The notes beneath the pieces were generated by a model. The model did not search any database. It was not told where the DNA came from and saw nothing but the letters and a program-made list of their open reading frames with translations. Below, one piece after another: positions 6,402 to 43,120 of a DNA stretch of 64,000 bases. Made by a program: the position numbers and the translations under genes. Positions within the stretch are counted from its first letter, which is position 1, and the number at the start of each line of letters is the position of its first letter. Source of the stretch: Candidatus Binatia bacterium (lineage in GTDB: Bacteria; Desulfobacterota; Binatia; UBA1149; CAITLU01); contig JBLFWR010000003.1 in the NCBI GenBank assembly GCA_047611725.1, positions 18,779 to 82,778 on the forward strand. The letters run 5' to 3'.

Positions 6402-6454
6402 GCGCCAAAACTAGCGCTGGCAAACGCGCATCGCCAGCGCATCGCCTGCGCGAC

Positions 6455-6501
6455 GCCTGCCCGTCATCTGCCCGTCATCTGCCCGTCATCTGCCCGTCGA
6501 T
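6455..6501. repeat. 11-mer tandem repeat (gcccgtcatct x3-4) between the GST start and the J-domain gene stop
   Basis: Seen directly in the sequence. Confidence 0.8.
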
Positions 6502-7107: not shown

Positions 7108-7225
7108 AGGAGCAGTTGCCACGGTAATGGCGGATTTGCTCAGCGACGCTTGCGGTTGTCTACTCCCAGCTAGCGGAGTTGTCCAAGGCGGGGGACCGGT
7201 GCCCCCTCCTGATAAGGAGGCAGAA

Positions 7226-7636
7226 ATGATAGCGCGAGAAGGCGGCTGCCAATGCGGAACAGTTCGTTATCGAATCCACGGCGAGCCCTTAGTGGTGTCC
7301 GCGTGCCACTGCGACCAATGTCGGCGCCAATCGGGCAGCGCCTTCGGAATGACGATCATCTTTCAACGAGATGATGTGAGCATGCTGGGGGGAAGCCTAA
7401 AATCCTTCGAACGCTCGAGTGACAGTGCCAACAAAGTCACCTGCTACTTCTGCGGTGATTGCGGGACTCGAATCTACCATGCCCTGGAGAGATCTCCGGG
7501 CACGATCAACATCAAACCGGGAACACTCGATGACTCGAGCGACGTGACGCCGGCCCTGCACATCTGGGTTTCAAAGAAGCGCGGGTGGGTAACTTTGCCC
7601 GACGACGTTCCGCAATTCGAAGAGCAACCGTCTTAG
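7226..7636 (+). CDS. GFA family protein (glutathione-dependent formaldehyde-activating / CENP-V-like zinc domain)
   Basis: CQCGTVRY...CHCDQCRR Cys pattern of the GFA domain. AAGGAGG ribosome-binding site before the internal ATG; the ORF extends to 7127. Confidence 0.75.
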   Translation: MIAREGGCQCGTVRYRIHGEPLVVSACHCDQCRRQSGSAFGMTIIFQRDDVSMLGGSLKSFERSSDSANKVTCYFCGDCGTRIYHALERSPGTINIKPGTLDDSSDVTPALHIWVSKKRGWVTLPDDVPQFEEQPS

Positions 7637-9467: not shown

Positions 9468-9666
9468 AGCCTGCCTAATCCCGCATAACCCTGTTCAACT
9501 CGGCCGGATCCAGACGGGTTCCGGGCGGCCATTGATCGCACGACCAATCCCCATTGGCGACCTACTGTCTCCCGCAGCCGCCGCGCAACGGCTCGTTGAC
9601 TCCCCGCCACTACCGACGCAAGCGTGGGCAAGACGGCGCGCAGACCGCGCGGGAAGGAGACAAGAC

Positions 9667-10575
9667 ATGCCGCGTATCCATAGCAACGGAATCGAGTTGG
9701 AATACGACACCTTTGGGAGTCCAAGCGACGAGCCATTGGTTCTCGTCATGGGCTTGGGCGCACAGATGATTTTGTGGGACGAAGCGTTTTGCGCAGAACT
9801 CGTCGAGCGCGGGTTCTTCGTGGTTCGCTTCGACAATCGCGACATCGGCCTGTCCACACATCTTCATGACCTGCCAAGCCCCAACCTGATACAGGTCGTG
9901 GCAGCAGCTTTGACTGGCAGGAAATTCAAGGCTCCCTACCTGCTTCGCGATATGGCGGCCGACACGGCTGGCCTGATCCGCGCGCTCGGTCTGGATTCGG
10001 CTCACGTTGTCGGCGCATCAATGGGTGGAATGATTGCGCAAACGCTTGCGGTCCAACATCCGACGCTAGTTCGATCGCTGACATCGATTATGTCCACACC
10101 GGGTGACGCCGACCTTCCTCGCCCTACTACTCGCGCGCTCACCGCACTGGCACGGCCTATCCCGCGCGCGAGAGACAAAGCGATCGAGCGCACGGTCAAA
10201 CTTTTTCGCACAATTGGAAGCCCGGGCTTTCCGTTTGAAGAAGACCTGGTCCGCGATGTCGCCACTCGTTCTTTCGATCGCTCCTTCGATCGAAAAGGAG
10301 TCGCACGACAAATGGCGGCCATCATCGCCTCGGGCGGACGACGCGCGGTGCTAGCCGCAGTCAATGCACCAACATTGGTCATTCACGGCGACGCCGACCC
10401 ACTAGTGCCACCGCAATGCGGTGTGGCTACGGCCGACGCGATCCGAGAAGCCGAACTCTTGATGATCAACGGAATGGGGCACGATCTGCCCCGTGCAAAA
10501 TGGAAGACCATGATCGATGGCATTGCGGGTCTCACCGAGCGTTACCATAAGGGCAACGCGCAGCGATCTGGCTAA
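9667..10575 (+). CDS. Alpha/beta hydrolase
   Basis: Internal ATG with a GGAAGGAGA ribosome-binding site. HVVGASMGG nucleophile elbow and a C-terminal HGDAD...GHD motif. The upstream 590 nt of the ORF is treated as a non-coding extension. Confidence 0.75.
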   Translation: MPRIHSNGIELEYDTFGSPSDEPLVLVMGLGAQMILWDEAFCAELVERGFFVVRFDNRDIGLSTHLHDLPSPNLIQVVAAALTGRKFKAPYLLRDMAADTAGLIRALGLDSAHVVGASMGGMIAQTLAVQHPTLVRSLTSIMSTPGDADLPRPTTRALTALARPIPRARDKAIERTVKLFRTIGSPGFPFEEDLVRDVATRSFDRSFDRKGVARQMAAIIASGGRRAVLAAVNAPTLVIHGDADPLVPPQCGVATADAIREAELLMINGMGHDLPRAKWKTMIDGIAGLTERYHKGNAQRSG

Positions 10576-16886: not shown

Positions 16887-18086
16887 CTAGTCCAAAAAGT
16901 CTCCATCCTTTAACCGCTGGGGTACATACTTTTCGGTAACGTAGGAAATATCCTTTGAGATCAGCGCTTCGACTTCCAGCTTGAAGCCGTTCTTGAGCAT
17001 CAACTGGATTTCGCGCTGCCACTCCCGCTTGTTGGCGAACCACGGGTAAGCCGCGATCTGCTTCGCGCGTTTAATGTCGTTGTCGTTGAGGTCAATCGTT
17101 ACCGACGGAGTTAACTCGCAGGCAGTGTAGTCCTTGCTGCGAAGACCGATGAAGCGGGCATCGGGAATCGCCATACGCTGCGATTCATAGGCCAAATTAA
17201 TCGACCCCTGCTTGAGCACCGAATAGATGTAGTACCCCCAAGGGTCGTTATCGAGCAGGCAATACACCGGTAGTTTCAGCTCGTTGTGCAAGCGGTACAG
17301 CATGCGGCGCACCCCGCGCGGAGGTTGGCCACCACCGTGGGTAAGAATGCACTTGTGGGTGCGCCAAAACTTATCTTCGTTAAAGCGCTGCCAAACAGTG
17401 TCCTTTTCGACGTGCAAGACGAACTTCGCATCGCAGCGCCCAAACTCGATCACGTCGGGCTCCACGATCGATGGAATCCCATAGCCGCCCGATCCCATAT
17501 GTGCACAGTCAATTACGTCGCCATTGTCGGTCAACGTAATTTCACCGACCATGTCGCCCTTCTTCTGAGCGTAGAGATGCAACTGTTCGCGCAGGGCGTT
17601 TAGGGTGACTTCAATGTCCTCAATGATCGGATCGCAATCACCCTGGTCATCGAACGTCTCTTCCTTGGTGCCCGGGATGGTGTGCTTGAGAAGATAGTAC
17701 AGACCACGAATCGATGTGGTCTTGCCCTCGTCAATCAGCTGCTTGCAGCCCGAGCCGACCAGCACCGACTGCATGTAGCTCTTGGCCTGCGAGAGATTGA
17801 ACAACTCGCGCCGATTGGTGCCTGTGCCCATTTCGATGAAGCGCTTGCGCTTGTTGTAACTTACGTTGGACAAGGAGCGAGAAGGAATCTCCAAGTGCGG
17901 CGTGCGGCGTTTGGAGGCCGCGGTGACCACGGAATCGGCCAAGCCTCTTAGTGACGCAAGCGTGCGTTGATCGACCTCGTTCCGCGCAGCGGCCAGTGCC
18001 GCGTTCTTGGCCGCTCGTGCAGCCTCCGCCTTGGCCGCAGCTTTCGTCGAGCCAGTTTTTTTCTTGCCGGTCGCCATCGAAATCAC
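16887..18086 (-). CDS. top6A: DNA topoisomerase VI subunit A (Spo11/Top6A family)
   Basis: Toprim and CAP motifs FVLHVEKD, LLDNDPWGYYIYSV and SINLAYESQRMAIPDARFIGL align closely with archaeal Top6A. The start overlaps the top6B stop by 4 nt. Confidence 0.9.
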   Translation of the reverse strand: MISMATGKKKTGSTKAAAKAEAARAAKNAALAAARNEVDQRTLASLRGLADSVVTAASKRRTPHLEIPSRSLSNVSYNKRKRFIEMGTGTNRRELFNLSQAKSYMQSVLVGSGCKQLIDEGKTTSIRGLYYLLKHTIPGTKEETFDDQGDCDPIIEDIEVTLNALREQLHLYAQKKGDMVGEITLTDNGDVIDCAHMGSGGYGIPSIVEPDVIEFGRCDAKFVLHVEKDTVWQRFNEDKFWRTHKCILTHGGGQPPRGVRRMLYRLHNELKLPVYCLLDNDPWGYYIYSVLKQGSINLAYESQRMAIPDARFIGLRSKDYTACELTPSVTIDLNDNDIKRAKQIAAYPWFANKREWQREIQLMLKNGFKLEVEALISKDISYVTEKYVPQRLKDGDFLD

Positions 18087-20389
18087 ACCAGGCGGAGCTG
18101 TTCGCCCGCCCTACCCTTGGCCGCGTTCTTAACCGCGGGGCCTTTCTTTGCCGTTTGTTTCTTCTTGGTCGTCTTCTTGGTTGGTTTTGCCGCGATTTTT
18201 TTCTTCGGCGATTTCTTCGAAGACTTCTTCGACACCTTCTTGGCGACCTTCTTGGCGACCTGAGCGACTTCCTTCGGTTTCGCCTTGGCGCGCTTCTTCG
18301 GCGCCTTTGTCGCTCTGACCCGGGGAGTCCGCACGCCGCCGTTCGTTGCGGGCCCGGCGTCACCACCATCGAGACGATCGCCAGTAACAACGGCTCCTGC
18401 ATCATCGACAATCAGAACGTTGTCCCCGTAGAATTCTTCTTCGCCTTCTTCTATGCGCTTGCCGGCATCGTCCATTTTCAGGTCGGCTTCGGCTGTCTTT
18501 CGCTGTGCGACTTCAAGAAGTTGCTCATAGACGACTTCCGGATCGGCCTGGTTCAGCTTACCAACAGCGGTCGCGACTTCGCCGAGATAGCGAAGAAAAA
18601 TACTACGACGCTCACCTTCCTGCTTAACACGACGACGACGACGCAAGTAAATTGACAACTTGCGTCCCACAGCCTGGAGCGCGAGTCGCAGTTCCTTTTC
18701 GATTTCGGGGTATGAGGCGACCGCCTCTTTCGATTCGCTGGTAAAAGGCACCCACACGCTACCCATGTGAACAACGATAGAAATCGGACCACCCGGGAGT
18801 TGCCCACGTGACTGCGTCAGACCATACGCACGCCAGTTGGTCTTCATCACGGCCTTAGTAATCGCACAGCCGCCGGCTTGGAACTGCAGCGGGACACGAT
18901 TGGCATAGCGCATGACCTGCATGCCCTGACCATCGGAGACGGTGACCGATTGCATGGCCTCAAAAAGTTTTTCGAGGCAAACGTCATCGACTTTCGATGG
19001 CGACTGACGAGCCGTGAAGCCTGCTGCCTTCAAAATCCGGTCGGCGCTATCGGGGCCCAGCCCATCGAACGAATTGACCAAGAACTGGCGCATGCTGCGA
19101 GCGTCACTTTCAGCCAAAACCTCGCGCAGCCCATCGAGCGAAACCTTCTCAACCGGGCTGCCACCACCAAACGCCAACGCGACCTCAATCTGGAACGGGT
19201 TGCCGCGATACACCGAAGGTGGCCGCGTAGAGGCAACATAAAACTCAGCGGGGACAACTTGATGGAGTCCCGCGAGCAGCAGCGGTTCTCCTATCGGCGA
19301 GATACAGTCGGTCGAGGGCGCAGAGATTTTGGTAGATTGCAGCGAACTATGGAGACGGTCGGCTTCGTCGCGACCAATACGCTTTGTGGACGCGCGAGAG
19401 GAAAGCTTTGCGGACTTGCAAACTTTGCTGGCTATGCCGGGACTGACGCGTGAAAAACTTTTAGTGAGAAACTGCGACAAGGTCTGCCCCTGCGCATCTT
19501 TCAACATCGTGATGAGACGGCCGAGTTCTACACCATAGGGATGGGGCTTGATCTCTTTCGCTTCCGGCGGAAGTTCAAATGTGGAGCGCCGGTATGTGTG
19601 CTGATTATCGTCGGGGTCGTGATAGTGGAGCGTCGCGTGCGGATTCGTGATCGCGGTTTGCTCCAAATACTCGTCAACGCTGCCGCGACCGCGTTTGTAT
19701 CGTGCTTCCAACTCGATCGTCACACGCGTGCCGCTTTTCACTTCCTGCGGCGCGGCACCTTCTTCGTCGGGATCGTAGTGGCTGTCCCACGCGATTCCGT
19801 GTTCGGCCATGTAGGCGCGACCCTTTTCGCCGGGCGCGATGTCGAGACCATTGCCGCGTCCGTTGTGAATTTCGGGCTTGTTGTTCTTCGTGTCGATCTC
19901 CACCTCATAATAATGAACAGGAGTTCGAATCGAGAGTTTGGAGACGATCTTGACTGGCTTGCCGGTCGTGAGCTTGCCGTACATGCCAGCCGCGCTGATA
20001 CCGATGCCCTGCTGGCCACGACTCATACGCAAGCGATGAAATTTGGAGCCGTACAGCAGCTTGCCGAAAATCAACGGAATCTGCTTTTTAACGATACCGG
20101 GGCCGTTGTCCTGGACGGAAACACGGAACCGGTCTTGGGTGGTTCGCTCGATGGCCACCCAGATTTCGGGAACGATGCCCGCTTCCTCACAGGCGTCTAG
20201 CGAGTTGTCGACGGCTTCCTTGACGGTAGTCAGAAGGGCCTTGCGCAGATTGTCGAAGCCGAGCAGGTGACGGTTCTTCGCAAAGAACTCACTGACCGAG
20301 ATCTCGCGCTGCGCCGCCGCCATCGACTGGGCGGTCGCATTCTTACGAGCCTTGGGCTTCCTAGTTGATCCGGCGCTCCGCGTCCCCAC
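18083..20389 (-). CDS. top6B: DNA topoisomerase VI subunit B (GHKL ATPase) with a lysine-rich histone-H1-like C-terminal tail
   Basis: EFFAKNRHLLGF, Bergerat N-box EAVDNSLDA, VQDNGPGI, KPHPYGV and RYANRVPL all match Top6B. GTG start with a GGAGAGGAAG ribosome-binding site. The C-terminal 70 aa is KK(x)-rich. Confidence 0.9.
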   Translation of the reverse strand: MGTRSAGSTRKPKARKNATAQSMAAAQREISVSEFFAKNRHLLGFDNLRKALLTTVKEAVDNSLDACEEAGIVPEIWVAIERTTQDRFRVSVQDNGPGIVKKQIPLIFGKLLYGSKFHRLRMSRGQQGIGISAAGMYGKLTTGKPVKIVSKLSIRTPVHYYEVEIDTKNNKPEIHNGRGNGLDIAPGEKGRAYMAEHGIAWDSHYDPDEEGAAPQEVKSGTRVTIELEARYKRGRGSVDEYLEQTAITNPHATLHYHDPDDNQHTYRRSTFELPPEAKEIKPHPYGVELGRLITMLKDAQGQTLSQFLTKSFSRVSPGIASKVCKSAKLSSRASTKRIGRDEADRLHSSLQSTKISAPSTDCISPIGEPLLLAGLHQVVPAEFYVASTRPPSVYRGNPFQIEVALAFGGGSPVEKVSLDGLREVLAESDARSMRQFLVNSFDGLGPDSADRILKAAGFTARQSPSKVDDVCLEKLFEAMQSVTVSDGQGMQVMRYANRVPLQFQAGGCAITKAVMKTNWRAYGLTQSRGQLPGGPISIVVHMGSVWVPFTSESKEAVASYPEIEKELRLALQAVGRKLSIYLRRRRRVKQEGERRSIFLRYLGEVATAVGKLNQADPEVVYEQLLEVAQRKTAEADLKMDDAGKRIEEGEEEFYGDNVLIVDDAGAVVTGDRLDGGDAGPATNGGVRTPRVRATKAPKKRAKAKPKEVAQVAKKVAKKVSKKSSKKSPKKKIAAKPTKKTTKKKQTAKKGPAVKNAAKGRAGEQLRLV

Positions 20390-20517: not shown

Positions 20518-21033
20518 CTAAATCGGGGACGGGTACCTATTTTTCCTAAATAGGTACCCGTCCCCGATTTCTCTATTCGCAAGGTTCACGTCAGTCCGGG
20601 TCAGGCTCAGACTCATCCCACCACCATTAAAAATGGCCAGGCCGGTCGTGATCACCGATGCCATAGTGTCCCCGGTGGTCGTCCCGTTGGTGGGAGAGGT
20701 GTAGAAACGCTCAGGCGACGTCAATGGATGCTTGGTCGTAAACTTGCCCATCTTACGGTCGTTCAGGGCCTCAATCGGCAAAATCACAACCGCACCCGAC
20801 GCCGCAAACTTCACTTCGCCACTAACTTCCGCCGAGTCGCTGCTAGCCCAGCGATCCCATTTCGAATTGCTGCTCTGCAGGGTGCTGAAATCCAGGACCA
20901 GGTTCAGACGCACCGCAGACGCGCCGAGGTCTCCCGCCAGCGTGCCCTCCTGAATCCAAGGAGATTCGCCCTTGGCCTGCTTGAACGCCATAGCAAGGCC
21001 GCCCATCACCCCTAGGTAGGACGGATTGAACAT
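20518..21033 (-). CDS. Hypothetical protein (possibly the 3' fragment of a disrupted lipoprotein gene)
   Basis: High GC3 ORF of 171 aa. Its last 15 codons and the stop lie inside the palindromic repeat at 20520..20570. Confidence 0.4.
   Translation of the reverse strand: MFNPSYLGVMGGLAMAFKQAKGESPWIQEGTLAGDLGASAVRLNLVLDFSTLQSSNSKWDRWASSDSAEVSGEVKFAASGAVVILPIEALNDRKMGKFTTKHPLTSPERFYTSPTNGTTTGDTMASVITTGLAIFNGGGMSLSLTRTDVNLANREIGDGYLFRKNRYPSPI
20520..20570. repeat. Palindromic repeat element, copy 1 (aaatcggggacgggtacctattt-loop-aaataggtacccgtccccgattt)
   Basis: Perfect arms of about 23 nt. Same family as 27799..27855 and 41899..41943. Confidence 0.85.
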
Positions 21034-21563
21034 CGACGTGCCAGTGGCCGAAAAGATGTGCTAGCGGGTTTGGCCGGCCTTACCCAACGCTGCCTCGGCG
21101 TCATCGCAAATGGTGTCGGCCAGGGCCTGCATGCCGGCGACATCCATCGCCCTTCATCTGGTAGATGGAGCGAACCTTTGATTCGACTCGACGCTCCGAC
21201 GACGGCAACAGGCCGCGGCTGGTCGCGGCACTGGCCGATGTTTGGATACCGTACAAAACGTTGCACTCGCTCAAAAAGTCCTTGCCCGGTGTCTTGTTGG
21301 CTCTTCCGTCCTTGGCCTCGATAAACGTGCTGGCCTGCGAAGTGGCCGAAGCGTCTCCGTCAAATCTGAGGCGCCGCAGGTGCAGTGGCCATACCGCCAC
21401 AGCCGGAAATCAAAAGCGCAAGCGCAACTGCAAAACACCCGATACTCACTATAGAAACCTCGAAATGCTTGGTCGTTCGGTCAAAAAAAACGGCTCCGGG
21501 AACGACGCCGGAACCGACTATATTCGCGATCTGAAAAACTCTGGCGACCCCCGGCCCGTGCAC
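21033..21563 (-). pseudogene. Probable degraded lipoprotein gene (lipobox signal peptide followed by at least two frame breaks)
   Basis: On the minus strand a GTG-initiated segment VSIVSIGCFAVALALLISGC (lipobox) ends after 10 more codons. The reading continues in two other frames into ORF 20518..21033. There is an A8 homopolymer at the 5' end. Confidence 0.35.
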
Positions 21564-21569: not shown

Positions 21570-22037
21570 CTAGTCTCCCGCCCTGGGTACTGGACGCGCT
21601 CCCACCGGATCGCGAAGGGGCCGCTCGCGGGCGAGCCCAACCTCGGCCGGCGAAAACGGTTCTACATTTTCTAGCCCAGAAAACTCGGAGAGCACGTAGT
21701 CCAGCAGGCGCGCCAAACGGGCATCGTCAACAGGAGCCTGCGCGACTCCGGGAACGCGCATGAGATAATCTCGGCCGCCGTTGGCCGTCATGACCGGGCC
21801 AAGCTCGTGCAACGACGGAACGGTTTCAGATCCGGTCCCGTCCATGAGGTGGCAACCCGCGCAGTGAAGGACGTAGTCGTGGCGAACCAAACTCGCAGCT
21901 GACGCAGCTGACGCAGCTGACGGAGTCGACACCGATTGGGGACTGGTCAATACGATTGCCGCATTCTCGGCAGCCACAGCATACGTGGCCATCAGCACGA
22001 GCAACATGCTCGCTGTACCCCAAACAGCCGACTTCAT
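21570..22037 (-). CDS. c-type cytochrome (class I, single CxxCH), probable electron acceptor for methylamine dehydrogenase
   Basis: Signal peptide, CAGCH haem-binding motif, ATGA overlap with mauA. Contains a 9-mer repeat encoding SAASAASAAS. Confidence 0.7.
   Translation of the reverse strand: MKSAVWGTASMLLVLMATYAVAAENAAIVLTSPQSVSTPSAASAASAASLVRHDYVLHCAGCHLMDGTGSETVPSLHELGPVMTANGGRDYLMRVPGVAQAPVDDARLARLLDYVLSEFSGLENVEPFSPAEVGLARERPLRDPVGARPVPRAGD
21895..21921 (-). repeat. 9-mer tandem repeat (gcagctgac x3) inside the cytochrome c gene
   Basis: Seen directly in the sequence. Confidence 0.8.
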
Positions 22038-22582
22038 TTTTCGGGTTGAGCCTCGACGGCCAAACCGATCACCATCGCTGTAGAACAGTTGTAGATCTGT
22101 GAGCTCGCCCCCCCGCACCAATTCACATCGTTGCTTCGATACGGGTGGTAAATCGGACGATCGCCTTCGTTGCGGTGGCAGAAACACCGACCGCAATAGC
22201 TCTTGCCACAGCAGTCGTTGTACCAAATCACATAGTCTTTTCCGTCGGCCGGATTGCGACACGTTCCGATCCAGGACACTGGCGACATCTCGGTCCCCGG
22301 CGGGCAAGCCTTGTGGGAACCACCACAACACGAGCACAAAAATCCATCGATGGCGCAATGCCGCCAGTACTCGCAGCGCATCGGATCTCCGAGTGGACCG
22401 TCGATCCCTTCAGGTGCCGCCGGTGCGCGTGAACTTGAAGCTTGACCACGGGCTACGGGCAAAAGCGGTATCGCAGCGGCGCCCACCAGCAATGCGGCAA
22501 AGCGTCCGAGGAACCCACGGCGAGGCATCCTGCGCGCCGCTTCACGCGAGTAGCGTTCCATCGTTCGATCGAGTCGGTTCAT
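22034..22582 (-). CDS. mauA: Methylamine dehydrogenase light (TTQ-containing) subunit
   Basis: Tat signal RRGFLGRFAALLVGAAA. The mature part aligns with Paracoccus MauA (CEYWRHCAIDGFLCSCCGGS...CPPGT...DCCG...RC.C). ATG in ATGA overlap with mauD. Confidence 0.9.
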   Translation of the reverse strand: MNRLDRTMERYSREAARRMPRRGFLGRFAALLVGAAAIPLLPVARGQASSSRAPAAPEGIDGPLGDPMRCEYWRHCAIDGFLCSCCGGSHKACPPGTEMSPVSWIGTCRNPADGKDYVIWYNDCCGKSYCGRCFCHRNEGDRPIYHPYRSNDVNWCGGASSQIYNCSTAMVIGLAVEAQPEK

Positions 22583-23235
22583 GCTCCGCCTCCTGTAGAA
22601 ACGCCTTCCGGACCGTCTCCCTTGTCCAACTCCGCCGGATCTGCGTGATCCGCCAACCAATCCTGGATCGACGCAACTCCCAGCCTTTCGGCTTCGAACA
22701 GGCTTTCCAGGTGTTCGCGTGTGTTGACCAAGCCCTTCGCTCGCAAAATCCCTTCTGCATCGATCAAAACGGCGTAAGGAAGTTTCGCTACTTCGAAACT
22801 AATCCCCAGGGCCGCCGACACGACATACGGCATCTCTTCAAGATCATGATCGGACACGAAACGGCGATGCTCTTCCTCATCTCCATCGCTTGCCAACACC
22901 ACTCGAAGCGGAGGCACTTGGGATCGAGCCACACGTAAGACCGTTGGCAACAAAACCTTACAAACCGGACAGGTTGGAGACAGGAAGAACACAAGCGTGC
23001 GACGACCATCGTCGGCCGGGCCGCCGATCGAAACTGGGGTACCAGCCAAGGTCGGTACTTCCAGCGTTGGTGCAGGCTCACCAACCTCGGGACCCGAACG
23101 GTTTAGCATCGCGCCCGCCGGAGCGAGACGTTCGTGTAAGACACCGACCTGTCTGATCAGCGCCAGCACGATGAACGCCAAAGCCACGACGACAACCCAA
23201 AGTAACACGTTGGAGATCAACAGGGTTTCGTTCAT
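22579..23235 (-). CDS. mauD: Methylamine utilization protein MauD (thioredoxin-like)
   Basis: N-terminal transmembrane helix and thioredoxin-like CPVC motif (FFLSPTCPVCKVLLP). Position between mauE and mauA. Confidence 0.75.
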   Translation of the reverse strand: MNETLLISNVLLWVVVVALAFIVLALIRQVGVLHERLAPAGAMLNRSGPEVGEPAPTLEVPTLAGTPVSIGGPADDGRRTLVFFLSPTCPVCKVLLPTVLRVARSQVPPLRVVLASDGDEEEHRRFVSDHDLEEMPYVVSAALGISFEVAKLPYAVLIDAEGILRAKGLVNTREHLESLFEAERLGVASIQDWLADHADPAELDKGDGPEGVSTGGGA

Positions 23236-23801
23236 ATCTGTCTCTCCAACGCCCGGGAAGCCCAGGAGGAATGCATCGAATTCTGCGCAACCAGTAAGCG
23301 TTCGATCGATTGCCAGGCTAAAGCCGCAGCAGCAACGCACGCGAAAACAGTTACCGCGTCTAACCAATGAAGCGAGCGAGAAACCGGTGTGACGAACAAA
23401 CTGGAACCGGCAACCAAAAGTGCGACATTTCGGACGATCAGTGCAGGCCCTAGTCTTTGATACAGTTCTGGACCGCCGCAACCGCAGTCGATGTCTCGGC
23501 GCCCACGCGCAACGTTCACGGAAATCGCAGTCGTATACGCGAGCAGAAGGCCCGACACCGCAGCGGCCGCCACAAACGGCGGCGCGAACAGTGCCGCGAG
23601 GCCAGTCGCCCCTTCAAAAACGACAATCGCCGTGCCGGCCGCGCGCACCCAGGTTTTCGGCAGTATTTCGTAAGCCCACAAGGTGCGCCGAAAGGCGTCG
23701 AGATCGGCGATCTTGTGACGCACGCCGACTGCAAAAAGACCGGCAAAGCACAGCCGAACAATCAGCTGTACGATCAGGTCGCCCAGAAAAAAAGCGATCA
23801 C
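23232..23801 (-). CDS. mauE: Methylamine utilization protein MauE (membrane)
   Basis: About 185 aa with four transmembrane helices, located between mauB and mauD. ATGA overlaps on both sides. Confidence 0.7.
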   Translation of the reverse strand: MIAFFLGDLIVQLIVRLCFAGLFAVGVRHKIADLDAFRRTLWAYEILPKTWVRAAGTAIVVFEGATGLAALFAPPFVAAAAVSGLLLAYTTAISVNVARGRRDIDCGCGGPELYQRLGPALIVRNVALLVAGSSLFVTPVSRSLHWLDAVTVFACVAAAALAWQSIERLLVAQNSMHSSWASRALERQI

Positions 23802-25183
23802 GGAAGCGCCATGATCCCGCCGGAAATTCCGGATTCTTCAAGGTTTCGAACATGCTCACCGGTCAACGCGTCTAGGACACCGATGGCACCGAGTTCGGAG
23901 TGACGAACGAACAACAACGGCTGTGCGTCCTGGGTGACAACAACGCTGTGCGCGCCTAACGACGGCAGCAGCCACGAAATTGCGCGGTAGGCGAAACTGT
24001 CGGATTCAAGATCAAGATACGGACGAAGAAACGGAGCTACCAACCCTGGGGCTTCATACGTCGCCACCGAAGTGCGCGCGTGGCTATCGTAGACCCGAAT
24101 CTCGAAACCCGGATCTTTGTGTGAACCCGGACCGCCCTGGTGAACAAGCGAATATAGACGTCCGCTGTCGCGATGCAGTGAGAGGTGCTGTACTCCGCCG
24201 ATCCTCCAACCATCCGCACGCTCGGAGTCAGAGAATAACGACCACCGCTTGCTAAGACTCGGCACATCGCCTGACGTTTCCACTTCGTGAAGCCAGCCGT
24301 CGAAGGAAGCAAAGAGCCATTTCGACCCGTCGCGTACCCCTTTTTCGGTAATCGGATCTTCGACGACATCAAAGAACGGTTCGCTCGAAACTAACGCCGC
24401 CGACTCTCCGGTCTCGTCGAGCTGTACAGCCATCGCGGTACCGTTGCCGCACAGCATGATGAAACTCGCTGGCCCCGTAGGATAAACTCCAGCGCAACCT
24501 GCCGTATCGATGGTTGCCACGAAACGTCGTGCGATGAGATCAACAACTCCGACGGCTGCGGTCGGATTCTGGCTGAAAACAACTAGGAAACGCCCCTCAT
24601 CCAAGACATCCACGAGGCCAACACCGTGGCCGGCCTCGGCGGTGTGAATCGGCAACTTGATTTCGCCAACTACGCCAAGACTTCGAGAGTCATAGATTGT
24701 GACGAAATCGGAGCGCTCACCGTAGTGTCCCCGCGCATACACGGACTCGACCATGTAGAACTCACCGCGGACACGGGATCCGAGCGGAGCGCGACCCGCG
24801 ATGTTGAAATTTGTGTCAATCGCTCCAAGGACGTTGCCGTCGTCACCATCGAAGAGCAAAGAGTGTTGGAAAATGCGGTCCGCGACCCAAACCCAGTGGT
24901 CGCCAGTGGTGTCGGGCAGGCTGGCTACGATCCCGTGAGGGTCTGCCTCAAGCTCGGCAGACGCGGCGCCGGCTCCCGCGAGGACGGTCCCCGCGACGAC
25001 GACCAGCGCGAGCAGCGGCAAAGCGAACAACGGCGCTTGGACGTGAAAGGGGTGCCGTAATCGCGACAATCGCGTCTCGCGCGTCTCGTCCGACTTTCGC
25101 CTCATTTCCGTTTGGCCCGTTGCGTCCGTCGCGCCCGTTTTGCCCGGCCTGTTCATGTTGCCCATGTTGCCTATGTTGCCCAT
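23798..25183 (-). CDS. mauB: Methylamine dehydrogenase heavy subunit (beta-propeller)
   Basis: Signal peptide and a 7-bladed propeller composition (FVVFSQNPTAAVGVVDL...). First gene of the mau cluster. The start is ambiguous: candidates are M1 at 25183 or MRRKSDE at 25105. Confidence 0.85.
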   Translation of the reverse strand: MGNIGNMGNMNRPGKTGATDATGQTEMRRKSDETRETRLSRLRHPFHVQAPLFALPLLALVVVAGTVLAGAGAASAELEADPHGIVASLPDTTGDHWVWVADRIFQHSLLFDGDDGNVLGAIDTNFNIAGRAPLGSRVRGEFYMVESVYARGHYGERSDFVTIYDSRSLGVVGEIKLPIHTAEAGHGVGLVDVLDEGRFLVVFSQNPTAAVGVVDLIARRFVATIDTAGCAGVYPTGPASFIMLCGNGTAMAVQLDETGESAALVSSEPFFDVVEDPITEKGVRDGSKWLFASFDGWLHEVETSGDVPSLSKRWSLFSDSERADGWRIGGVQHLSLHRDSGRLYSLVHQGGPGSHKDPGFEIRVYDSHARTSVATYEAPGLVAPFLRPYLDLESDSFAYRAISWLLPSLGAHSVVVTQDAQPLLFVRHSELGAIGVLDALTGEHVRNLEESGISGGIMALP

Positions 25184-26751: not shown

Positions 26752-27795
26752 ATGCGCATCGAAACCGCCGTACCCTTAGGAAATTGGAGAGCCGTATCTG
26801 CAGCCGCCCGCCGCGCCGAGGCCGCGGGGTTTGATGGGCTCGAGAGCTTCGAGATTGCCGCCGATCCTTTCGCGCCGCTGGTCATCGCGACGCTGGCCAC
26901 CGAACGCATACACCTGGGAACAGCCATCGCCGTATGCTTTCCGCGAAGCCCAATGGTCATGGCCAACATCGCCTGGGATCTGAACGTCGAAAGCGGCGGG
27001 CGTTTCACACTCGGGTTGGGAACGCAGGTCAAAGGGCACAACGAACGTCGTTTCAGCGTTCCTTGGAGTCCGCCACTTCCTAGGCTTCGCGAGTATGTGG
27101 GGGCACTTCGTGCGATTTGGAAGACCTGGGAAACCGGCGAGCCTCTCGCCTTTGAGGGCAAGCACTACAACTTCTCGTTGATGACCCCGGAGTTCTCGCC
27201 CAAGCCGTCCGGAATCGCGCCTCCTCCGATCACTGTGGCTGCAGTAAAGCCGGCGATGCTTAAAACAGCGGGACGCGTCTGCGATGGCGTGCGACTTCAC
27301 GGATTCGCAACCCGCAAGTACCTTGAAGAAACGGCGATGCCCGCGTTGGTGGAGGGAATGGAGATGAGCGGACGTGATCGCTCGAACTTCGAGATCTGGG
27401 GCGGTGGCTTTATCGCCACAGGGCGCGACGACGAAGCGGTCAACAAGGCTCTGGAAGGTATTCGCTACCGTATCGGCTTCTACGGCTCGACGCGCAGCTA
27501 CCATGGCGTGCTTGCCGCACACGGCGCCGAGGACCTCGGCATGAAACTTCACGACATGTCTAAGCAGGGAAAGTGGAAAGAGATGGCCGCCGAAATTCCC
27601 GACGATCTTCTTCACGAATTTGTTGCGGTGGCGACCTATGACGGCCTGGTGGATATCGTCAGCAAGCGATTCGGCGGCATCACCGATTCGATCACCATCG
27701 ATTTTCCAGCCGACGCCGATCCAGGATTTTTTGCGGAGCTAGTAAGCGACCTTCAAAAAATCCCATCCACCTTCGAGACGTTCGCCACCGCCTAA
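26752..27795 (+). CDS. LLM-class (luciferase-like) flavin/F420-dependent oxidoreductase
   Basis: Luciferase-like TIM-barrel motifs (GFDGLESFEIAADPF, GLGTQVKGHNERRF). Confidence 0.75.
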   Translation: MRIETAVPLGNWRAVSAAARRAEAAGFDGLESFEIAADPFAPLVIATLATERIHLGTAIAVCFPRSPMVMANIAWDLNVESGGRFTLGLGTQVKGHNERRFSVPWSPPLPRLREYVGALRAIWKTWETGEPLAFEGKHYNFSLMTPEFSPKPSGIAPPPITVAAVKPAMLKTAGRVCDGVRLHGFATRKYLEETAMPALVEGMEMSGRDRSNFEIWGGGFIATGRDDEAVNKALEGIRYRIGFYGSTRSYHGVLAAHGAEDLGMKLHDMSKQGKWKEMAAEIPDDLLHEFVAVATYDGLVDIVSKRFGGITDSITIDFPADADPGFFAELVSDLQKIPSTFETFATA

Positions 27796-27798: not shown

Positions 27799-27855
27799 AA
27801 TCGGGGACGGGTACCGATTTAGCGTAAACGCTAAATCGGTACCCGTCCCCGATTT
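27799..27855. repeat. Palindromic repeat element, copy 2 (26-nt perfect arms, taaa loop), positioned between two convergent stop codons
   Basis: aatcggggacgggtaccgatttagcg-taaa-cgctaaatcggtacccgtccccgatt. It abuts the LLM stop at 27795 and the metzincin stop at 27856. Confidence 0.85.
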
Positions 27856-30435
27856 CTATTTCTTTAGGGCTATGTAGATCAAACCGTCGTCTTTCTTCAA
27901 CGTGTTCATCGTCGCGCCGACACAAACACCTTCGCCGGTAATCAGCTGAATCGTCGGCGACACGTTTCCACCCAGGGCTGCAACGACGCCGAGAGGGAGC
28001 GAAGTCTGCCCTTTTGCCACATTGTTCTTACCAAGCGCATCAGCCTTGCCCTTGCCTGCATCTCCGCTTTTGAGACCAATCTTCGCAACGCCCTGAGTGG
28101 CCACGTCTTTGTCCTTGTAGCCGTATCCCTTCGTGCCCTTGGCCTTCCAACAAGGCTTGCCAGCACAGGTGTCACCCGCGCGCGCGACGACAAACTCCTG
28201 AACGAGATCGGAGAAATCATCATAGATACAAAGCGCCACTTCCGTGAAAGAGTTCACCGGGTCACCGAAGTCGCCTTGAACGGTGGCCTCCTCGATATTG
28301 GTCAACTTAAGCTTCATCTTCTCTTTGCCAGCTTTCTTTTCATTGTACTGAATGCTGGCCCGACCGCCGGTTAAACAACCCAGAGCCGGTGTCGCCGGGC
28401 ACGCGGCCGGTACGGGAATGACTAGGCTGAAATCACCACCCTCAGAGATATTGAAGAAGGTTGCCGCCGGACCGGGGCCTGGGTCCAAAACGCATTCGAC
28501 AAGCACGCGGGCCTGAGACGTCACGACGTTGGGAACGGCGATACTCTCGGATCCATCGTTGGGCGTATCGTCGGCCAAAACCGTAGCAAACGTCGCGCCG
28601 CTATCCGAAGAGAACAAAATGTCTACTGTGGAGCAATTCACCGGCGCGCTGTCGGTGTCGGCAATGTCCCACAGTACGGTCGCGGTGAGGTTGGAGGCCC
28701 ACGCAGTACTGCCGACTGGGCTCGTTACAACGAAAGGCCCCGCACCACCATCCACCGAAAATGCCATTTCGTCGTGTGCGACTCCGCCGCCACCTGCACG
28801 ATTGTCGCGCACGGTCAGACGAAACGTCAGATCTCGCGTCTTGGTTGGCAAAATTTCGCCAATTGTTGATGTACCGCCAAGGATGTCGCTCATTCTCGGG
28901 AAAGTACGAGCGGCCGTTGTCGTAGCGCTAAACGACCGGAAAATCGGCGCGTTGCCTGTCGGCGATTGCGGCACACCTTGCGGGCCCAGGTCGAACTGTT
29001 CCCAGTTGTAAGTCAGCGCATCGAAGTCCGGGTCGGTCGCGGCTCCGGTGAGTGTGAACGGTGTTTCAGACGGGATGGTAAAACCGCCCGCACCCGCGTC
29101 CGGGACCGGCGCAGAGTTTCCGGTGGCCGACGTGGTGCCGCAGGCGCTACCCGACCCAACCGTGGTATGCGCAATCATTTCGTCAAAGCTAAGCGTGTGA
29201 AAGTAGGGATCGCTGTTCGCTTGTAGGTTGTTCGACGAACCGCAAATGCCTGCATACGCCTGAATGGTAGAACCACTGCCTGGTTCATAGGCCGTATCCT
29301 CGGAATGGTTGTCCGACGAACACGACCCTCCCTTCCCGTTCCACGTGTGACTACCCGCGAATTGATGTCCTAGCTCGTGCGCGACGAAATCAACGTAAAA
29401 CGGATCGCCGACAGGAGAACTCAAACCAGTCTCGCCGCCGGCTTTGGCCGACGAGTTGCAGACGACTCCTAGAAAGGCGAGTCCACCGCCACCCGTGGTA
29501 ACCACATGGCCGACGTCGTAATTCGCCGTACCGATCACGGAATCGACGTTCACCTGGTTTTCTCCCAACAGGGCGAACGCGTCTTCATTGGAATAGGGAT
29601 CGGTGCCCGCGTCCAGGTAAATGAGAAGGTCGTTGTTCGCGACGAGCACCAGGCGAGAGGCAATCTCCACCTCGTAGATTCCAGTCACGCGATTAACGAG
29701 CGTGACCAACTCAGCGGCCACTGCCGGCACGGTCCCACCGTGAAACGTGCTGTACTCGCCGTCGGCGGCCATCGCCAAACGATAGGTACGCAACGTGTCC
29801 CCTGAGGCGACCGACACAACCCCACGCGCCAACAGTGAGTTGGTCGCGGCAGCGCGCTTACCACCTGGATCCAGAGGCGGTAGCAAGTCGATCGTTGCCC
29901 CGTGTCTGGGGCGATAGTCACGCTTTTTGTAGCTAACGTAGTTCCGAACTTGACCAGGTGAGTACGGATCGATGTAGATCGCGCCGTTCGGGGAGAGGAT
30001 CTGCGCGTGGAAGCCGGCCGGCGTCCAGTCCAAACGAACCGTCGCGTCAGGGTCGTCGATGCCCTGGCCCACAAAAGTTTGGATCTCGGGGAATTTGGCG
30101 GCCAGGCCGGGCTCCATGACCGGTGACTCAACCAACGAGAAACGCCCCGTCGAGCCGTCCGGCATCGGTAGCCCGACGATCGTCCCCGTAGACCCCGTAT
30201 TCTCCCCCGGGACCGTCGACAAGAAACCTTCCCAACCAATCACGTCGAGTTCTACGGTTCGATAGACGTCGGGGACGATCACCCTTGCCTGGCGCGCCAG
30301 TGCAGGGGAATCAGCGACGTCAGACCAAAACGAAGCGTCGGCGGCCAAAGCAGTCTGGGCGTGAAACGCAAGGGTCAAAAAACCAAGACAAAAGACGAAA
30401 GTTGAGGCAACCCGGAACGGTTTCTGAAAATGCAT
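27856..30435 (-). CDS. Secreted metzincin zinc metalloprotease (reprolysin/M12B-like) with a Lys/Gly-rich C-terminal domain
   Basis: Signal peptide (MHFQKPFRVASTFVFCLGFLTLAFHAQTALA). The HELGHQFAGSH motif fits the HExxHxxGxxH metzincin consensus. Several beta-rich domains. Internal ATG start. Confidence 0.7.
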   Translation of the reverse strand: MHFQKPFRVASTFVFCLGFLTLAFHAQTALAADASFWSDVADSPALARQARVIVPDVYRTVELDVIGWEGFLSTVPGENTGSTGTIVGLPMPDGSTGRFSLVESPVMEPGLAAKFPEIQTFVGQGIDDPDATVRLDWTPAGFHAQILSPNGAIYIDPYSPGQVRNYVSYKKRDYRPRHGATIDLLPPLDPGGKRAAATNSLLARGVVSVASGDTLRTYRLAMAADGEYSTFHGGTVPAVAAELVTLVNRVTGIYEVEIASRLVLVANNDLLIYLDAGTDPYSNEDAFALLGENQVNVDSVIGTANYDVGHVVTTGGGGLAFLGVVCNSSAKAGGETGLSSPVGDPFYVDFVAHELGHQFAGSHTWNGKGGSCSSDNHSEDTAYEPGSGSTIQAYAGICGSSNNLQANSDPYFHTLSFDEMIAHTTVGSGSACGTTSATGNSAPVPDAGAGGFTIPSETPFTLTGAATDPDFDALTYNWEQFDLGPQGVPQSPTGNAPIFRSFSATTTAARTFPRMSDILGGTSTIGEILPTKTRDLTFRLTVRDNRAGGGGVAHDEMAFSVDGGAGPFVVTSPVGSTAWASNLTATVLWDIADTDSAPVNCSTVDILFSSDSGATFATVLADDTPNDGSESIAVPNVVTSQARVLVECVLDPGPGPAATFFNISEGGDFSLVIPVPAACPATPALGCLTGGRASIQYNEKKAGKEKMKLKLTNIEEATVQGDFGDPVNSFTEVALCIYDDFSDLVQEFVVARAGDTCAGKPCWKAKGTKGYGYKDKDVATQGVAKIGLKSGDAGKGKADALGKNNVAKGQTSLPLGVVAALGGNVSPTIQLITGEGVCVGATMNTLKKDDGLIYIALKK

Positions 30436-30754
30436 CCAGGGGTTACACCATAGATCGGTGGTCCTTATCAAGGTGTTCCGCGTAGCTTCCCCCGATACAG
30501 TTCTATAGACGCACCCACGCCCCCATCCCGGCTGGCGACCCAACATGACAGACAGCAATCGGTCCACCCAAACGGCCTCGCCGACGACGCCGGACCGCTG
30601 CGCGGCCGATTTCTCCACCGAATCGAAGACTTGGGCGGCATTCGTTTGATTCTCTAAAGCCTAAGCTCGCTGCGCGAAACCGTGCCCCTGTGGCGACAGC
30701 CGAAAAAGGAGCTCCGTACTTGCGTACAGGTATGCATGTAAGTACAAGTAATGC

Positions 30755-37993: not shown

Positions 37994-38090
37994 ATGGGGC
38001 TGCACCAAACTGTCCTCGCCGGACAGAGCGCCTGAAAACTCGGGCTTTTCTTGTTGTTCTTTCAAACTGGGGTGGCAGCGCGACAGGGTT

Positions 38091-38145: not shown

Positions 38146-38297
38146 ATGCTCTTTTTGAGGAAATTCGGCGCCAACCCTGGGGCCAATTTGATTCACAGAG
38201 CCAAATCATCCACGAAAACACCCAGTTCGCCGAAAAAAATGGTTGCTGGCCGCGACGAGAACACCGACCGCGTCGATGAAGGCCCAAGGGAAATTGC

Positions 38298-40353: not shown

Positions 40354-41871
40354 ATGGATGTCAGCGGGGACACAACTTCCTGCAACCCTTTGTCAGACCG
40401 GAGACTCGTTGACGTGACCACAAACACCACCCTTCGCATCGCCATCATCGGCGCCGGCCCCGGTGGCCTTGCCGCTGGACACGAACTTCTCGACAAAGGG
40501 TTCACAAACTTCACCCTATTCGAGGCCACCGATGCGGTGGGCGGCACCTGGCACATCCACACCTACCCGGGCTTGGCCTGCGATGTCTGGGCTCACTCGT
40601 ACACGTTTTCCTATCGGCCGAATCCGGATTGGACCGCAAACTTCGTCGAACAGCCGGAAATCGAACAATACCTGCAAACCTGCGCACTCGAGTTTGGGCT
40701 GACCCCGCACATAAAACTCAACACACGCATTGCTAGCGCCGTGTACCAAGACGGTGGAAGCTGGCGGCTGACCAGCGAACGCGGCGAGACATTCGAGTGC
40801 GACGTCGTGATCAACGCGATGGGCAACCAGCACACGCCGCTATACCCAGATGTTCCGGGCAAAGAAGATTTTGCTGGGAACAGTTTTCACGGCACACGCT
40901 GGGATCACACGGTCGAACTCCGAGGCAAGCGCGTCGTTGTTGTGGGGTCGGCGGCAAGCGCCGTGCAGATCGTCCCCGAAATCGCCAAGGTCGTCGGCCA
41001 TCTCACGGTTTTGCAACGAAGCGCCAACTGGATCATGCCGCGCCGACGCAAGCTGTACTCGGACGCCAAGCGCAATTGGTTTCGCCGCTTGCCGCTTTTG
41101 ATACGGCTTACCCAGCGCTTTCAGCGTTTTCTCATGAGTTTCGTTCTTCCCGCCGTCACGATCGGGCACAAGCGCATGAAGGATTTCGAGAAACTCGCAA
41201 AACGCTACCTCGACTCGGTGATTCCGGAGGGCGCAATGCGCGACGCACTGACTCCGGACTCGCAGTACGGGTGCAAGCGAGGGTTGGTCTCTGATGACTT
41301 CTACCCCGCGTTGATGCGTGAAAACACAGAGCTGGTGCACGACGGGTTGGGCAAGGTTCGCCCCGAAGGAATTACAACCAGCGGCGGCCGTGAGATCGAC
41401 GTAGACGTCATCATCTACTGCACCGGCTATCGAATTCTCGACTTCGATCGAATCAACGTAGTCGGAGAGAACAGCCAAACCCTCGCCGCGCAAATGAGCG
41501 ACACACCCGAAGCGCACAAGGGCATCGCAGCACCTGGCTTTCCGAACTACTTCTTCGCGGTCGGCCCGAACGGGTTGGTGCTAGACACCCCGTACTTTAT
41601 GACCGTCGAAAAGAACCTCGAGACCATCGTTCGACTGCTCATCGAAAAGGAAGCCGCGGGTCTGCACGCAATCGCCGTCAAACCCGACCTTCACCGTGCG
41701 TACAACGACTGGATGGAACCGCGTTTTCCTTTGTATTCGTGGGGCAATGAGGCTTGCAGCAGCTACTACCGCACCGCCAGCGGCCGAGTCCCCTTCCTAT
41801 ACCCCGGCAGCTTCAAGGACTACACGAAAATGCACGCGGCCATCACTCTTGAAGAGTTCGAATCGCGTTAG
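40354..41871 (+). CDS. Flavin-containing (Baeyer-Villiger-type) monooxygenase; probable GTG start near 40413
   Basis: Two Rossmann dinucleotide-binding motifs (IAIIGAGPGG; VVVVGSAASAVQI) and an FMO-family layout. Confidence 0.8.
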   Translation: MDVSGDTTSCNPLSDRRLVDVTTNTTLRIAIIGAGPGGLAAGHELLDKGFTNFTLFEATDAVGGTWHIHTYPGLACDVWAHSYTFSYRPNPDWTANFVEQPEIEQYLQTCALEFGLTPHIKLNTRIASAVYQDGGSWRLTSERGETFECDVVINAMGNQHTPLYPDVPGKEDFAGNSFHGTRWDHTVELRGKRVVVVGSAASAVQIVPEIAKVVGHLTVLQRSANWIMPRRRKLYSDAKRNWFRRLPLLIRLTQRFQRFLMSFVLPAVTIGHKRMKDFEKLAKRYLDSVIPEGAMRDALTPDSQYGCKRGLVSDDFYPALMRENTELVHDGLGKVRPEGITTSGGREIDVDVIIYCTGYRILDFDRINVVGENSQTLAAQMSDTPEAHKGIAAPGFPNYFFAVGPNGLVLDTPYFMTVEKNLETIVRLLIEKEAAGLHAIAVKPDLHRAYNDWMEPRFPLYSWGNEACSSYYRTASGRVPFLYPGSFKDYTKMHAAITLEEFESR

Positions 41872-41898: not shown

Positions 41899-41943
41899 AA
41901 TCGGTACCCGTCCCCGATTTTTAATCGGGGACGGGTACCGATT
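41899..41943. repeat. Palindromic repeat element, copy 3 (arms in swapped order, ttt loop), between convergent genes and overlapping the 41942 stop
   Basis: aatcggtacccgtccccgatt-ttt-aatcggggacgggtaccgatt. Confidence 0.85.
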
Positions 41944-43120
41944 AATTGACGACTGCGGAGATGACTATATCGGAGAGTCGTGAGAGGCGCTCCATGTGGC
42001 GGCTGTCTTCCATGAGGCCGGTGGATAGGAACGTGAAGCTTAGGTCTCGTTCCGGGTCTACCCAGAAACAGGTCGAGCCTGCTCCCCAACCGCAGAAGCT
42101 TCGGGGCGAGGCGAGCGAACCGATGGGGCCTGGGGTGATTGCCTCGCCGCGTAGGAAGAAGCCTAAGCCGATGTAGGCGGGCCAGGGGCGCCAACCGCGA
42201 GTTGCCACGGTGTAGTCGAACAAAGAGTTGGGGCGACGGGCTGTGTGGTTGCGTGTAGCCAAGTCGATCATTGCCGGCGATAGAATCCGTTCGCCGCCTA
42301 ACTCCCCTCCGCGGCGCAACATGGTCGCGAAGGCATGCAGGTCGTGGGCGGTCGACAGGTAGCCGCCGCCAGGCAGCTCGATGCCGGGCAAGGTCAACAA
42401 TAGCGCCATGCCTTCCAATTCTTCGCCGCTAAAGATTCCTCGCTCGCTGTAGCGCGACACGACTGGGCACAAGCGCTCCATCAAATCCGCACGGCCACCG
42501 AGCGACGTGCTCTTCATGCCGAGGCGATCGTAGAGATCTTCCTGAAGGATCTGCGAGATTCCACGACCGGCGGGATCGGTTCGCACCAACATCAACGCGA
42601 GCACCGAGTGCGCGACGAGAATCGAATACTGCACGCGCTTGCCGGGCTCGGATTCCAACGCGGCGCGCGCCGCGAACTCGGTCATTTTCTCAATGTTTCC
42701 GAGATCGGCAGGTTCCAAAGCCGGAACTTGAGACGCGATTCCGCTGGTATGCGAGAGCAGTTGGGCCAGCGTGATGTGGTCTTTTCCAGTTCCCTCGAAC
42801 TCGTTTAACACTTCGACAATGGGAGCGTGTAAACGCAGGCGACCCGCTTCGACTGCCGCCAGAATCAACACGTTGATGAACTGCTTTCCGACCGACATGG
42901 TCACAAACACGTCGTCCAGACTCAGTTCCCGGTTGGCACTTCGATCGGCGAACCCCACGGCCCGCGCAGCGGCGATTCCGTTGCCGCGGCCGACAACCAA
43001 CGTACCACCATCATAAAGGTTTGCGGCGATGTCAGAGGCCATGGCCTCCCACACGCGATCCAATCGGGCAGCGTCGAAACCAAGTTCTTCAGGGTTTGTG
43101 ATGTTCATATCGGTCTCCAT
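41942..43120 (-). CDS. Serine hydrolase (class C beta-lactamase / esterase family)
   Basis: SVGK (SxxK) active-site motif; beta-lactamase-family length and composition. Confidence 0.75.
   Translation of the reverse strand: METDMNITNPEELGFDAARLDRVWEAMASDIAANLYDGGTLVVGRGNGIAAARAVGFADRSANRELSLDDVFVTMSVGKQFINVLILAAVEAGRLRLHAPIVEVLNEFEGTGKDHITLAQLLSHTSGIASQVPALEPADLGNIEKMTEFAARAALESEPGKRVQYSILVAHSVLALMLVRTDPAGRGISQILQEDLYDRLGMKSTSLGGRADLMERLCPVVSRYSERGIFSGEELEGMALLLTLPGIELPGGGYLSTAHDLHAFATMLRRGGELGGERILSPAMIDLATRNHTARRPNSLFDYTVATRGWRPWPAYIGLGFFLRGEAITPGPIGSLASPRSFCGWGAGSTCFWVDPERDLSFTFLSTGLMEDSRHMERLSRLSDIVISAVVN

Follow-up and report, generated by a model that had tools for sequence, protein, structure and literature searches.

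Three perfect palindromes of 45-56 bp, all built from one common unit of 17-21 bases, stand at the 3' ends of unrelated genes in a stretch of 64,000 nt from a metagenome-assembled genome (MAG) of Candidatus Binatia (Binatota); this whole stretch of 64 kb is referred to here as the window, and all window counts refer to its full length. On balance, we regard the palindromes as probable members of a repeat family of the repetitive extragenic palindrome (REP)/REPIN kind in the uncultured Binatia, whose hairpins would lie at transcript 3' ends and whose spread would have been of the HUH type. Such a family belongs to a class of repeats already described in bacteria and does not represent a new mechanism, its only unusual feature being a conserved unit centre of 13-14 nt that recurs in perfect hairpins across several phyla. 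The window is otherwise an ordinary chromosomal stretch: the oxidoreductase that flanks one of the palindromes is 100% identical to a Candidatus Binatia protein and has its best relatives in Binatia, and a Pfam profile search of 54 window open reading frames (ORFs), all long ones included, shows metabolic and housekeeping genes.

Three perfect palindromes at gene 3' ends

The 17-mer AATCGGGGACGGGTACC matches the window six times, as three inverted pairs, against 0.21 expected matches and with 0 of 100 shuffles reaching six, which bears out an earlier reading of the same DNA, made without database searches (hereafter the sequence-only reading), that had derived the palindromes from a common 17-mer and its reverse complement. 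Copy 1 (20520-20570) has arms of 23 nt (20520-20542 and 20548-20570) around a 5-nt loop, ttcct, with its core 17-mers at 20521-20537 (+) and 20553-20569 (-). Copy 2 (27799-27854) has arms of 27 nt (27799-27825 and 27828-27854) with 2 nt between them, and copy 3 (41899-41943) arms of 21 nt (41899-41919 and 41923-41943) around the loop ttt, with the core order swapped. The limits that the sequence-only reading had set for copies 1 and 3 hold, whereas its end of copy 2, 27855, lies one base too far; the exchange of arm order that it had seen in copy 3 is real, the core order being inverted with respect to copy 2. A repeat finder gave 100% arm complementarity in all three copies, which are by far the strongest inverted repeats of the window. 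No further match to AATCGGGGACGGGTACC exists in the 64 kb even at three mismatches, a scan with the 13-mer core at up to two mismatches added one match at chance level, and all three doublets are extragenic or at ORF ends.

Folding as RNA yields -42 to -61 kcal/mol, with z-scores of -7.9 to -11.5 (copy 1, -44.5 / -45.7 kcal/mol; copy 2, -59.8 / -61.0; copy 3, -44.9 / -41.7), and folding as DNA -27 to -35 kcal/mol (copy 1, -27.6).

The building block of copies 2 and 3 is a 21-nt unit, AATCGG-GGACGGGTA-CCGATT, whose own ends are complementary, and the pattern AATCGG-N(3-25)-CCGATT has four matches in the window versus 0.17 expected. Copy 2 reads as unit(+) at 27799-27819, a palindromic spacer of 14 nt, TAGCGTAAACGCTA, and unit(-) at 27834-27854, and copy 3, in the opposite arrangement, as unit(-), TTT, unit(+). 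Inverted unit pairs are thus present in both arrangements, each forming one long hairpin per site. The arm of copy 1 is a variant, here called T-type, AAATC-GGGGACGGGTACC-TATTT. What is conserved in the unit is its centre, GGGGACGGGTACC, while the short stem around this centre varies between lineages. Beyond the palindrome family, no other REPs with an AATCGG stem or a GTAG tag were found in the window.

The variation of the short stem preserves its pairing. In a set of 24 distinct arms, taken from nine genomes or more, pairing between the bases on either side of the core occurs in 72.7% of cells, versus 58.8% after shuffling of columns (0 of 500 shuffles as high) and 31-42% with a slid partner, and the covariation score of the unit stem is 0.349 versus 0.137. 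Compensatory changes are clear, for instance A:T, C:G and G:C at one and the same position. Furthermore, the flanks of family arms pair at 3.1 of 6 positions, compared to 1.5 of 6 around 136 chance matches to the core, of viral and unrelated genomic origin. Whichever strand is taken by itself, the long hairpin prevails over the unit stem.

Two of the palindromes lie between convergent stop codons, as the sequence-only reading had noticed. Copy 2 nearly fills the 60-nt gap between the gene of an F420-dependent LLM-class oxidoreductase (26752..27795, +), whose TAA stop ends 3 nt before it, and that of an M12B (reprolysin-like) metallopeptidase (27856..30618, -), whose TAG stop lies 1 nt from it. 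Copy 3 follows the stop of a flavin-containing (Baeyer-Villiger-type) monooxygenase gene (40354..41871, +) after 27 nt, and its last 2 nt are overlapped by the TAA stop of the gene for a beta-lactamase-fold protein (41942..43120, -); all four products were assigned by Pfam. In a survey of the window based on a crude gene map, the convergent gaps with an element measure 60 and 70 nt and the other tight ones 19-41 nt, the latter without a strong hairpin; one convergent pair overlaps by 54 nt, and three wider gaps (153-707 nt) probably reflect missed genes. Minus the element, the two occupied junctions would measure about 4 and about 25 nt, and the palindromes look like insertions into normal, tight convergent junctions.

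Copy 1 sits between an orphan ORF of 171 aa (20518..21033, -) and the topoisomerase VI B/A operon, which lies directly downstream, the start of subunit B being 130 nt away. It encodes the last ~17 codons of the orphan ORF together with the first base of its stop, so that the overlap described by the sequence-only reading stands, but not its extent, given there as the last 15 codons and the stop. The orphan ORF is annotated as a hypothetical protein, is also called as a gene in an independent assembly (L174, below) and has no Pfam match. Its codon score (0.159) compares with 0.164 +/- 0.027 in known genes, competing frames being negative, and among 5.8 billion proteins it found only its own self-match. 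The elements can create or extend ORF tails, as in this case. A more general reshaping of gene 3' ends, as the sequence-only reading had it, is weakly indicated by this one orphan ORF and is contradicted at copy 2: homologues of the LLM oxidoreductase (346-349 aa) cover 99-100% of the query, and as its C-terminus has the same length as theirs, the element has not altered that gene.

Relatives in other genomes

When one genome per species was scanned (185,579 species), the exact 17-mer occurred at 26 loci, of which about 16 are isolated chance matches and the remainder family-like. Another Binatota MAG contains a T-type hairpin (L023) and a single G-type unit (L002). The unclassified MAG Glo_18 carries the core on three contigs, each time within ~220 nt of the contig end, as T-type hairpins in L007 and L022 and as a single unit in L021. 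Family-like matches were also present in Bacteroidales, Burkholderiales and Steroidobacteraceae MAGs and in Ca. Bariatricus faecipullorum, a gut Clostridia MAG. Taken together, a few unrelated genomes (Binatota, Lachnospiraceae-like gut bacteria, Bacteroidales, Burkholderiales and Steroidobacteraceae) carry the 13-14-nt core in perfect hairpins placed 2-24 nt behind stop codons, and relatives are multi-copy in other genomes.

A metagenome scan with the paired 14-mer core as query returned 18 loci, most of them from a Bariatricus-like gut organism, whose element is a perfect hairpin of 36 nt, CGGGGACGGGTACCGGC-YR-GCCGGTACCCGTCCCCG. Its many copies (L018 and L148-L165; for instance L163:3493-3528 and 9634-9669, L162:1338-1373 and 3823-3858) lie 2-24 nt after the stops of unrelated housekeeping genes and lack U-tracts. 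They are often framed as GTAG-a-[17-bp stem]-t-CTAC, with the tag at the hairpin foot, and carry a further repeated flank (gaattgtaga / tctacaattc..aaactattctgac). Two gut metagenomes have five of these loci to compare, and at two of the five the loop is inverted, TG versus CA, at the same locus (L148:5359-5394 versus L163:3493-3528, with identical 40-nt flanks, and L149:9-44 versus L163:9634-9669). This shows that the hairpins are dynamic and undergo loop flipping, which fits recombination or template switching between the arms. By such exchange, the arms could stay perfectly complementary even as the inner parts of different copies drift apart.

Core hairpins at six loci (L005:1075-1133, L013:2881-2953, L017:4078-4148, L156:5625-5706, L164:3222-3278 and L151:2285-2361) belong to Bacteroidales, Burkholderiales and Steroidobacteraceae MAGs and to unassigned GC-rich contigs. 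The inner palindromic extension differs in each of the six, several have extra GGGGAC / GTCCCC fragments nearby, and the hairpin of L156 has perfect arms of 40 nt. Glo_18 holds two structures in a single convergent gap (L007:6373-6409 and 6430-6474), one being a canonical bidirectional A-tract/T-tract terminator (AAAGAGGGGGTGACGCCG a CGGCGTCACCCCCTCTTT) and the other a perfect palindrome on a variant core (GGGGAAGGGTACGAATTTCCC; GGGGAAGGGTAC...). The family thus has core variants and coexists with ordinary terminators, and its presence beside one argues that it is not simply the terminator of the host. In the other Binatota MAG, the single family unit (L002:1395-1450) adjoins a small GTAG-tagged hairpin, GTAG-ATCGGT-atcggcc-ACCGAT, of similar stem and different loop, which hints that canonical GTAG REPs with related stems may exist in Binatota.

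Gene positions around 24 sites, taken from a crude ORF call, are convergent in nine cases and tandem in six, typically 2-24 nt from a stop codon. The lone site called divergent is copy 1 of the window, which is tandem by codon scoring; five sites fall inside long ORFs of GC-rich loci, probably spurious calls, and at three an ORF was called on one side only. The adjoining genes are unrelated housekeeping genes. No paired arms occurred in 2.9 million viral contigs, where the 14-mer was single in all matches listed and was taken as chance, and ~60 kb from other relatives, reached through the flanking genes, contained no copies. The distribution of the family is rare and patchy.

Rfam gave no match at the gathering score in the window, only generic sub-threshold hairpin matches resembling miRNA precursors at copy 2 when E-value thresholds were applied, and no hairpin-covering match in 145 kb of related loci. 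Furthermore, the exact core appeared in a single paper of the searchable literature, judged unrelated and probably a primer match, and the GGGGAC / GTCCCC strings are absent from the text of the REP surveys examined.

Origin of the family and alternative explanations

With REPs, bacterial interspersed mosaic elements (BIMEs) and REPINs (inverted REP doublets), all of which go with Y1 transposases named RAYT or TnpA-REP, the family has in common short, extragenic, multi-copy palindromic units (20-40 nt) that pair head-to-head (HH) or tail-to-tail (TT) into a long hairpin, and also the location near gene 3' ends without target duplication. HH and TT dimers of REPs, as well as intragenic units, have been described (PMC3733652), and REP copies within 15 nt of stop codons have been discussed as translational modulators (PMC12306157). 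The Stenotrophomonas SMAG and GTAG families (Di Nocera et al. 2013, PMC3733652) are similar in the foot tag of the gut-MAG relatives, in their HH/TT dimers and in their 3'-end location. However, the flank in the window is AAAAG, ATAGA or other and not GTAG, and its stems of 21-27 bp exceed the 5-13 bp reported for GTAG families (PMC3733652).

We propose that a common element spread into the short intervals directly behind stop codons, probably through an enzyme that recognises hairpins in single strands, of the RAYT / IS200 type, and that leaves no target duplication. The arms would probably be kept complementary by template switching within the hairpin or by gene conversion. The hairpin would then form at the 3' end of the flanking transcripts, serving to end transcription or to hold off 3' exonucleases, and since a ribosome at the stop codon reaches as far as the hairpin, folding may be coupled to translation termination. 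The target-site duplications for which the sequence-only reading had suggested a search did not turn up, as no direct repeat of at least 3 bp abuts any of the three copies. Absence of a target duplication is expected of Y1/HUH-type elements and not of DDE-type MITEs (miniature transposable elements with inverted repeats).

Several observations weigh against a REP/REPIN-like family mobilised in this manner. Unlike in REPs and REPINs, none of the six window arms has a GT[AG]G (or terminal CGTC) tag next to it, whereas the GT[AG]G tag does occur beside the gut-MAG relatives as well as near L023 and L156; in addition, the conserved part is the unit centre or loop and not the stem, the arms are perfectly complementary, and an identical core occurs in several phyla. 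Again unlike REPs and REPINs, no RAYT gene is linked to the Binatia family: Pfam found no transposase, integrase, HUH enzyme or RAYT/Y1 (PF01797) among the 54 window ORFs, and tblastn with an E. coli RayT query, a weak test, returned nothing below E = 0.38 in ~400 kb of related loci. RAYTs are usually single-copy per genome. Only three copies are visible in the 64 kb, the mismatch-tolerant core scan of which detected no decayed relics or single copies. Folded on its own, the single G-type unit is marginal (-4.5 to -5 kcal/mol) and the T-type unit of copy 1 is not stable. With regard to the transcript, copy 1 has a poor U-tract on the strand that is transcribed, and so does copy 3 on its plus strand.

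No empty orthologous site was found among the nearest relatives (74-86% aa identity), which are non-syntenic at the junctions or reach a contig end there. The orthologues compared (P0002, P0005 and P0019 for the LLM oxidoreductase, P0125 for the monooxygenase, whose closest relative is only ~75% identical) either do not keep the junction or come to the end of their contig 57 nt behind the stop. The closest related contig, L027, with an oxidoreductase 86% identical, ends 57 nt after the stop; these last bases (L027:11045-11101) contain GGGGCTCGTCCCC, and this contig may also break at a repeat.

Some of these deviations have counterparts among described systems. Every tnpA-REP gene is paired with a REP family of its own, tnpA-REP genes are patchily distributed by horizontal transfer, and some subclasses have untagged REPs (PMC6006769). 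By analogy, a pattern of this kind would allow for the lack of a tag as well as for the patchy occurrence across phyla. A bolder and doubtful, albeit possible, extension would make the core (C)GGGGACGGGTACC a recognition module that works across phyla, belonging to a single undescribed system of hairpin element and enzyme or to a hairpin-binding factor, which would have moved horizontally between phyla and whose specificity would reside in the loop, unlike in known REP-RAYT pairs. This idea stems from an invariant core carried, just after stop codons, on stems that differ and covary between lineages. If it were true, the core would give a compact, sequence-defined means of tracing whichever enzyme or factor recognises it, and would help to test whether REP-type hairpins travel between phyla with their own enzyme. 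Apart from this cross-phylum possibility, the elements are ordinary as bacterial repeats go. With this family, Binatota gain REP/REPIN-like repeats, and for annotation, the elements serve as markers of gene 3' ends in an uncultured phylum and account for contig breaks in its assemblies.

The best-surviving alternative, unlikely as we judge it, holds that the palindromes are bidirectional intrinsic terminators selected by the host without any mobile history, their shared sequence resulting from local duplication or from convergence on an efficient design. Much of their form agrees with this: as in bidirectional intrinsic terminators, the stems are GC-rich, their flanks are A-rich 5' and T-rich 3' (AAATC...GATTTC), two of them stand between convergent genes, and every site carries a gene 3' end. 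A crude consensus scan for terminator-like features was passed by 4 of the 6 sides of the three copies, copy 2 being flagged on both strands, whereas only the minus strand of copy 3 and only the plus strand of copy 1 passed. Bidirectional terminators, which the sequence-only reading had found the stems to fit, are plausible but agree only in part: copy 2 passes on both sides, copies 1 and 3 pass on one strand each, and the stems of 21-27 bp are atypically long, far longer than the ordinary terminators of this genome and two to three times longer than is usual for intrinsic terminators. The good U-tract of copy 1 lies on the strand that has no upstream gene, and U-tracts are otherwise short or interrupted, being absent from the gut-MAG copies. 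Moreover, the genome possesses normal short-stem U8 terminators, such as the one at 21491-21516 (-), in which a GC-rich stem of 9 bp is followed by T8, and in the L007 gap a family-like palindrome stands next to a canonical terminator.

Ordinary terminators do not share 17-21 nt of sequence between unrelated genes, still less between the genomes of different phyla, and neither the unit structure nor the swapped arm order of copy 3 has a role in termination or is explained by it. As for the transcribed form, G-U wobbles in imperfect relatives fit the transcribed strand in one case and do not in another. A terminator role is plausible for some sides of the copies, but does not explain the family.

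Quite improbable in our view is that the core acts as a signal on double-stranded DNA, be it an uptake-sequence-like motif or a binding site of a nucleoid or other protein. An invariant core of 13-17 nt with a variable spacer and either relative orientation could be read in this manner, and the core holds a GGTACC (KpnI-type) site. The positions behind genes, too, resemble the paired DNA uptake sequences (DUS) of Neisseria and uptake signal sequences (USS) of Haemophilus, with which the family has in common a fixed short sequence, inverted pairs and terminator-like hairpins. DUS and USS often form terminators as inverted pairs, but are mostly single, frequent within genes and lineage-specific, whereas the 64 kb contain no single or intragenic copies at 2-3 mismatches and the core occurs in unrelated phyla, which contradicts a species-specific uptake tag. 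Flanks that covary so as to keep a stem are not expected of a site on duplex DNA, and the location between convergent stops excludes an operator role.

Very improbable, furthermore, are very small MITEs, that is, deletion derivatives of a DDE-transposon with terminal inverted repeats (TIRs) that were mobilised in trans. The elements are small, non-coding, dispersed, extragenic and hairpin-forming, sometimes overlapping gene ends as do bacterial MITEs such as Correia/NEMIS and ERIC, and copies 1 and 2 agree in the outer parts of the palindrome and differ in the inner part. MITEs have fixed TIRs, target duplications and lengths above 100 bp, of which the window family shows none: copy 3 has the opposite ends outward, target-site duplications of at least 3 bp are missing, 45-56 bp is far below usual MITE sizes, the window holds no transposase gene, and relatives occur as single units (L002, L021). 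Consequently, of the label REP/MITE-like that the sequence-only reading had attached to the family, the first half is upheld by the short units, both arrangements, the 3' ends and the relatives near stops, whereas the second falls with the swapped ends and the lack of a target-site duplication and of a transposase in the window.

Assembly or sequencing artefacts such as fold-back chimeras, to which the breaking of contigs of two assemblies inside copy 2 might point, deserve hardly any weight, since an independent Logan assembly has copy 1 in identical form, which refutes an artefact for that copy, the copies are embedded between intact genes, and related copies exist in many unrelated assemblies. 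This Logan assembly, L174, stems from another run and matches the window over 9.6 kb with one single-nucleotide polymorphism (SNP), copy 1 included; its contig ends at window position 27820, inside copy 2, and a JGI contig of the same population was inferred to start at ~27816. Breaks at copy 2 are the expected behaviour of a repeated palindrome. The contigs obtained by exact protein matches belong to the same population, differ by 1-2 SNPs and bring no extra copies.

Integron attC sites, dif/Xer, CRISPR repeats, Tn3-type inverted repeats, KOPS/Chi, group II intron domain V and tRNA/rRNA fragments were rejected as well, since they are not known to resemble the palindromes in sequence or architecture.

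Neighbouring genes and further observations

The operon downstream of copy 1 comprises the gene of topoisomerase VI subunit B (18083..20389, -), which has an extra NFACT_N-like match, and that of subunit A/Spo11 (16887-18086, -), both recognised by Pfam. A methylamine dehydrogenase cluster (heavy chain, MauE, thioredoxin-like protein and light chain) occupies window positions 21570-25183 (-), and such a cluster also adjoins the oxidoreductase in the related contig L027. The gene of a glutathione-dependent formaldehyde-activating enzyme lies at 7127-7636 (+). Ectoine-type genes are found at 36163-38687, where a class-III aminotransferase and a GNAT acetyltransferase (-) are divergent from an ectoine synthase (+). 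Finally, an unrelated, near-perfect hairpin at 1625-1672, with 19-nt arms that are 95% complementary and a loop of 10 nt, sits between two tandem outer-membrane beta-barrel genes.

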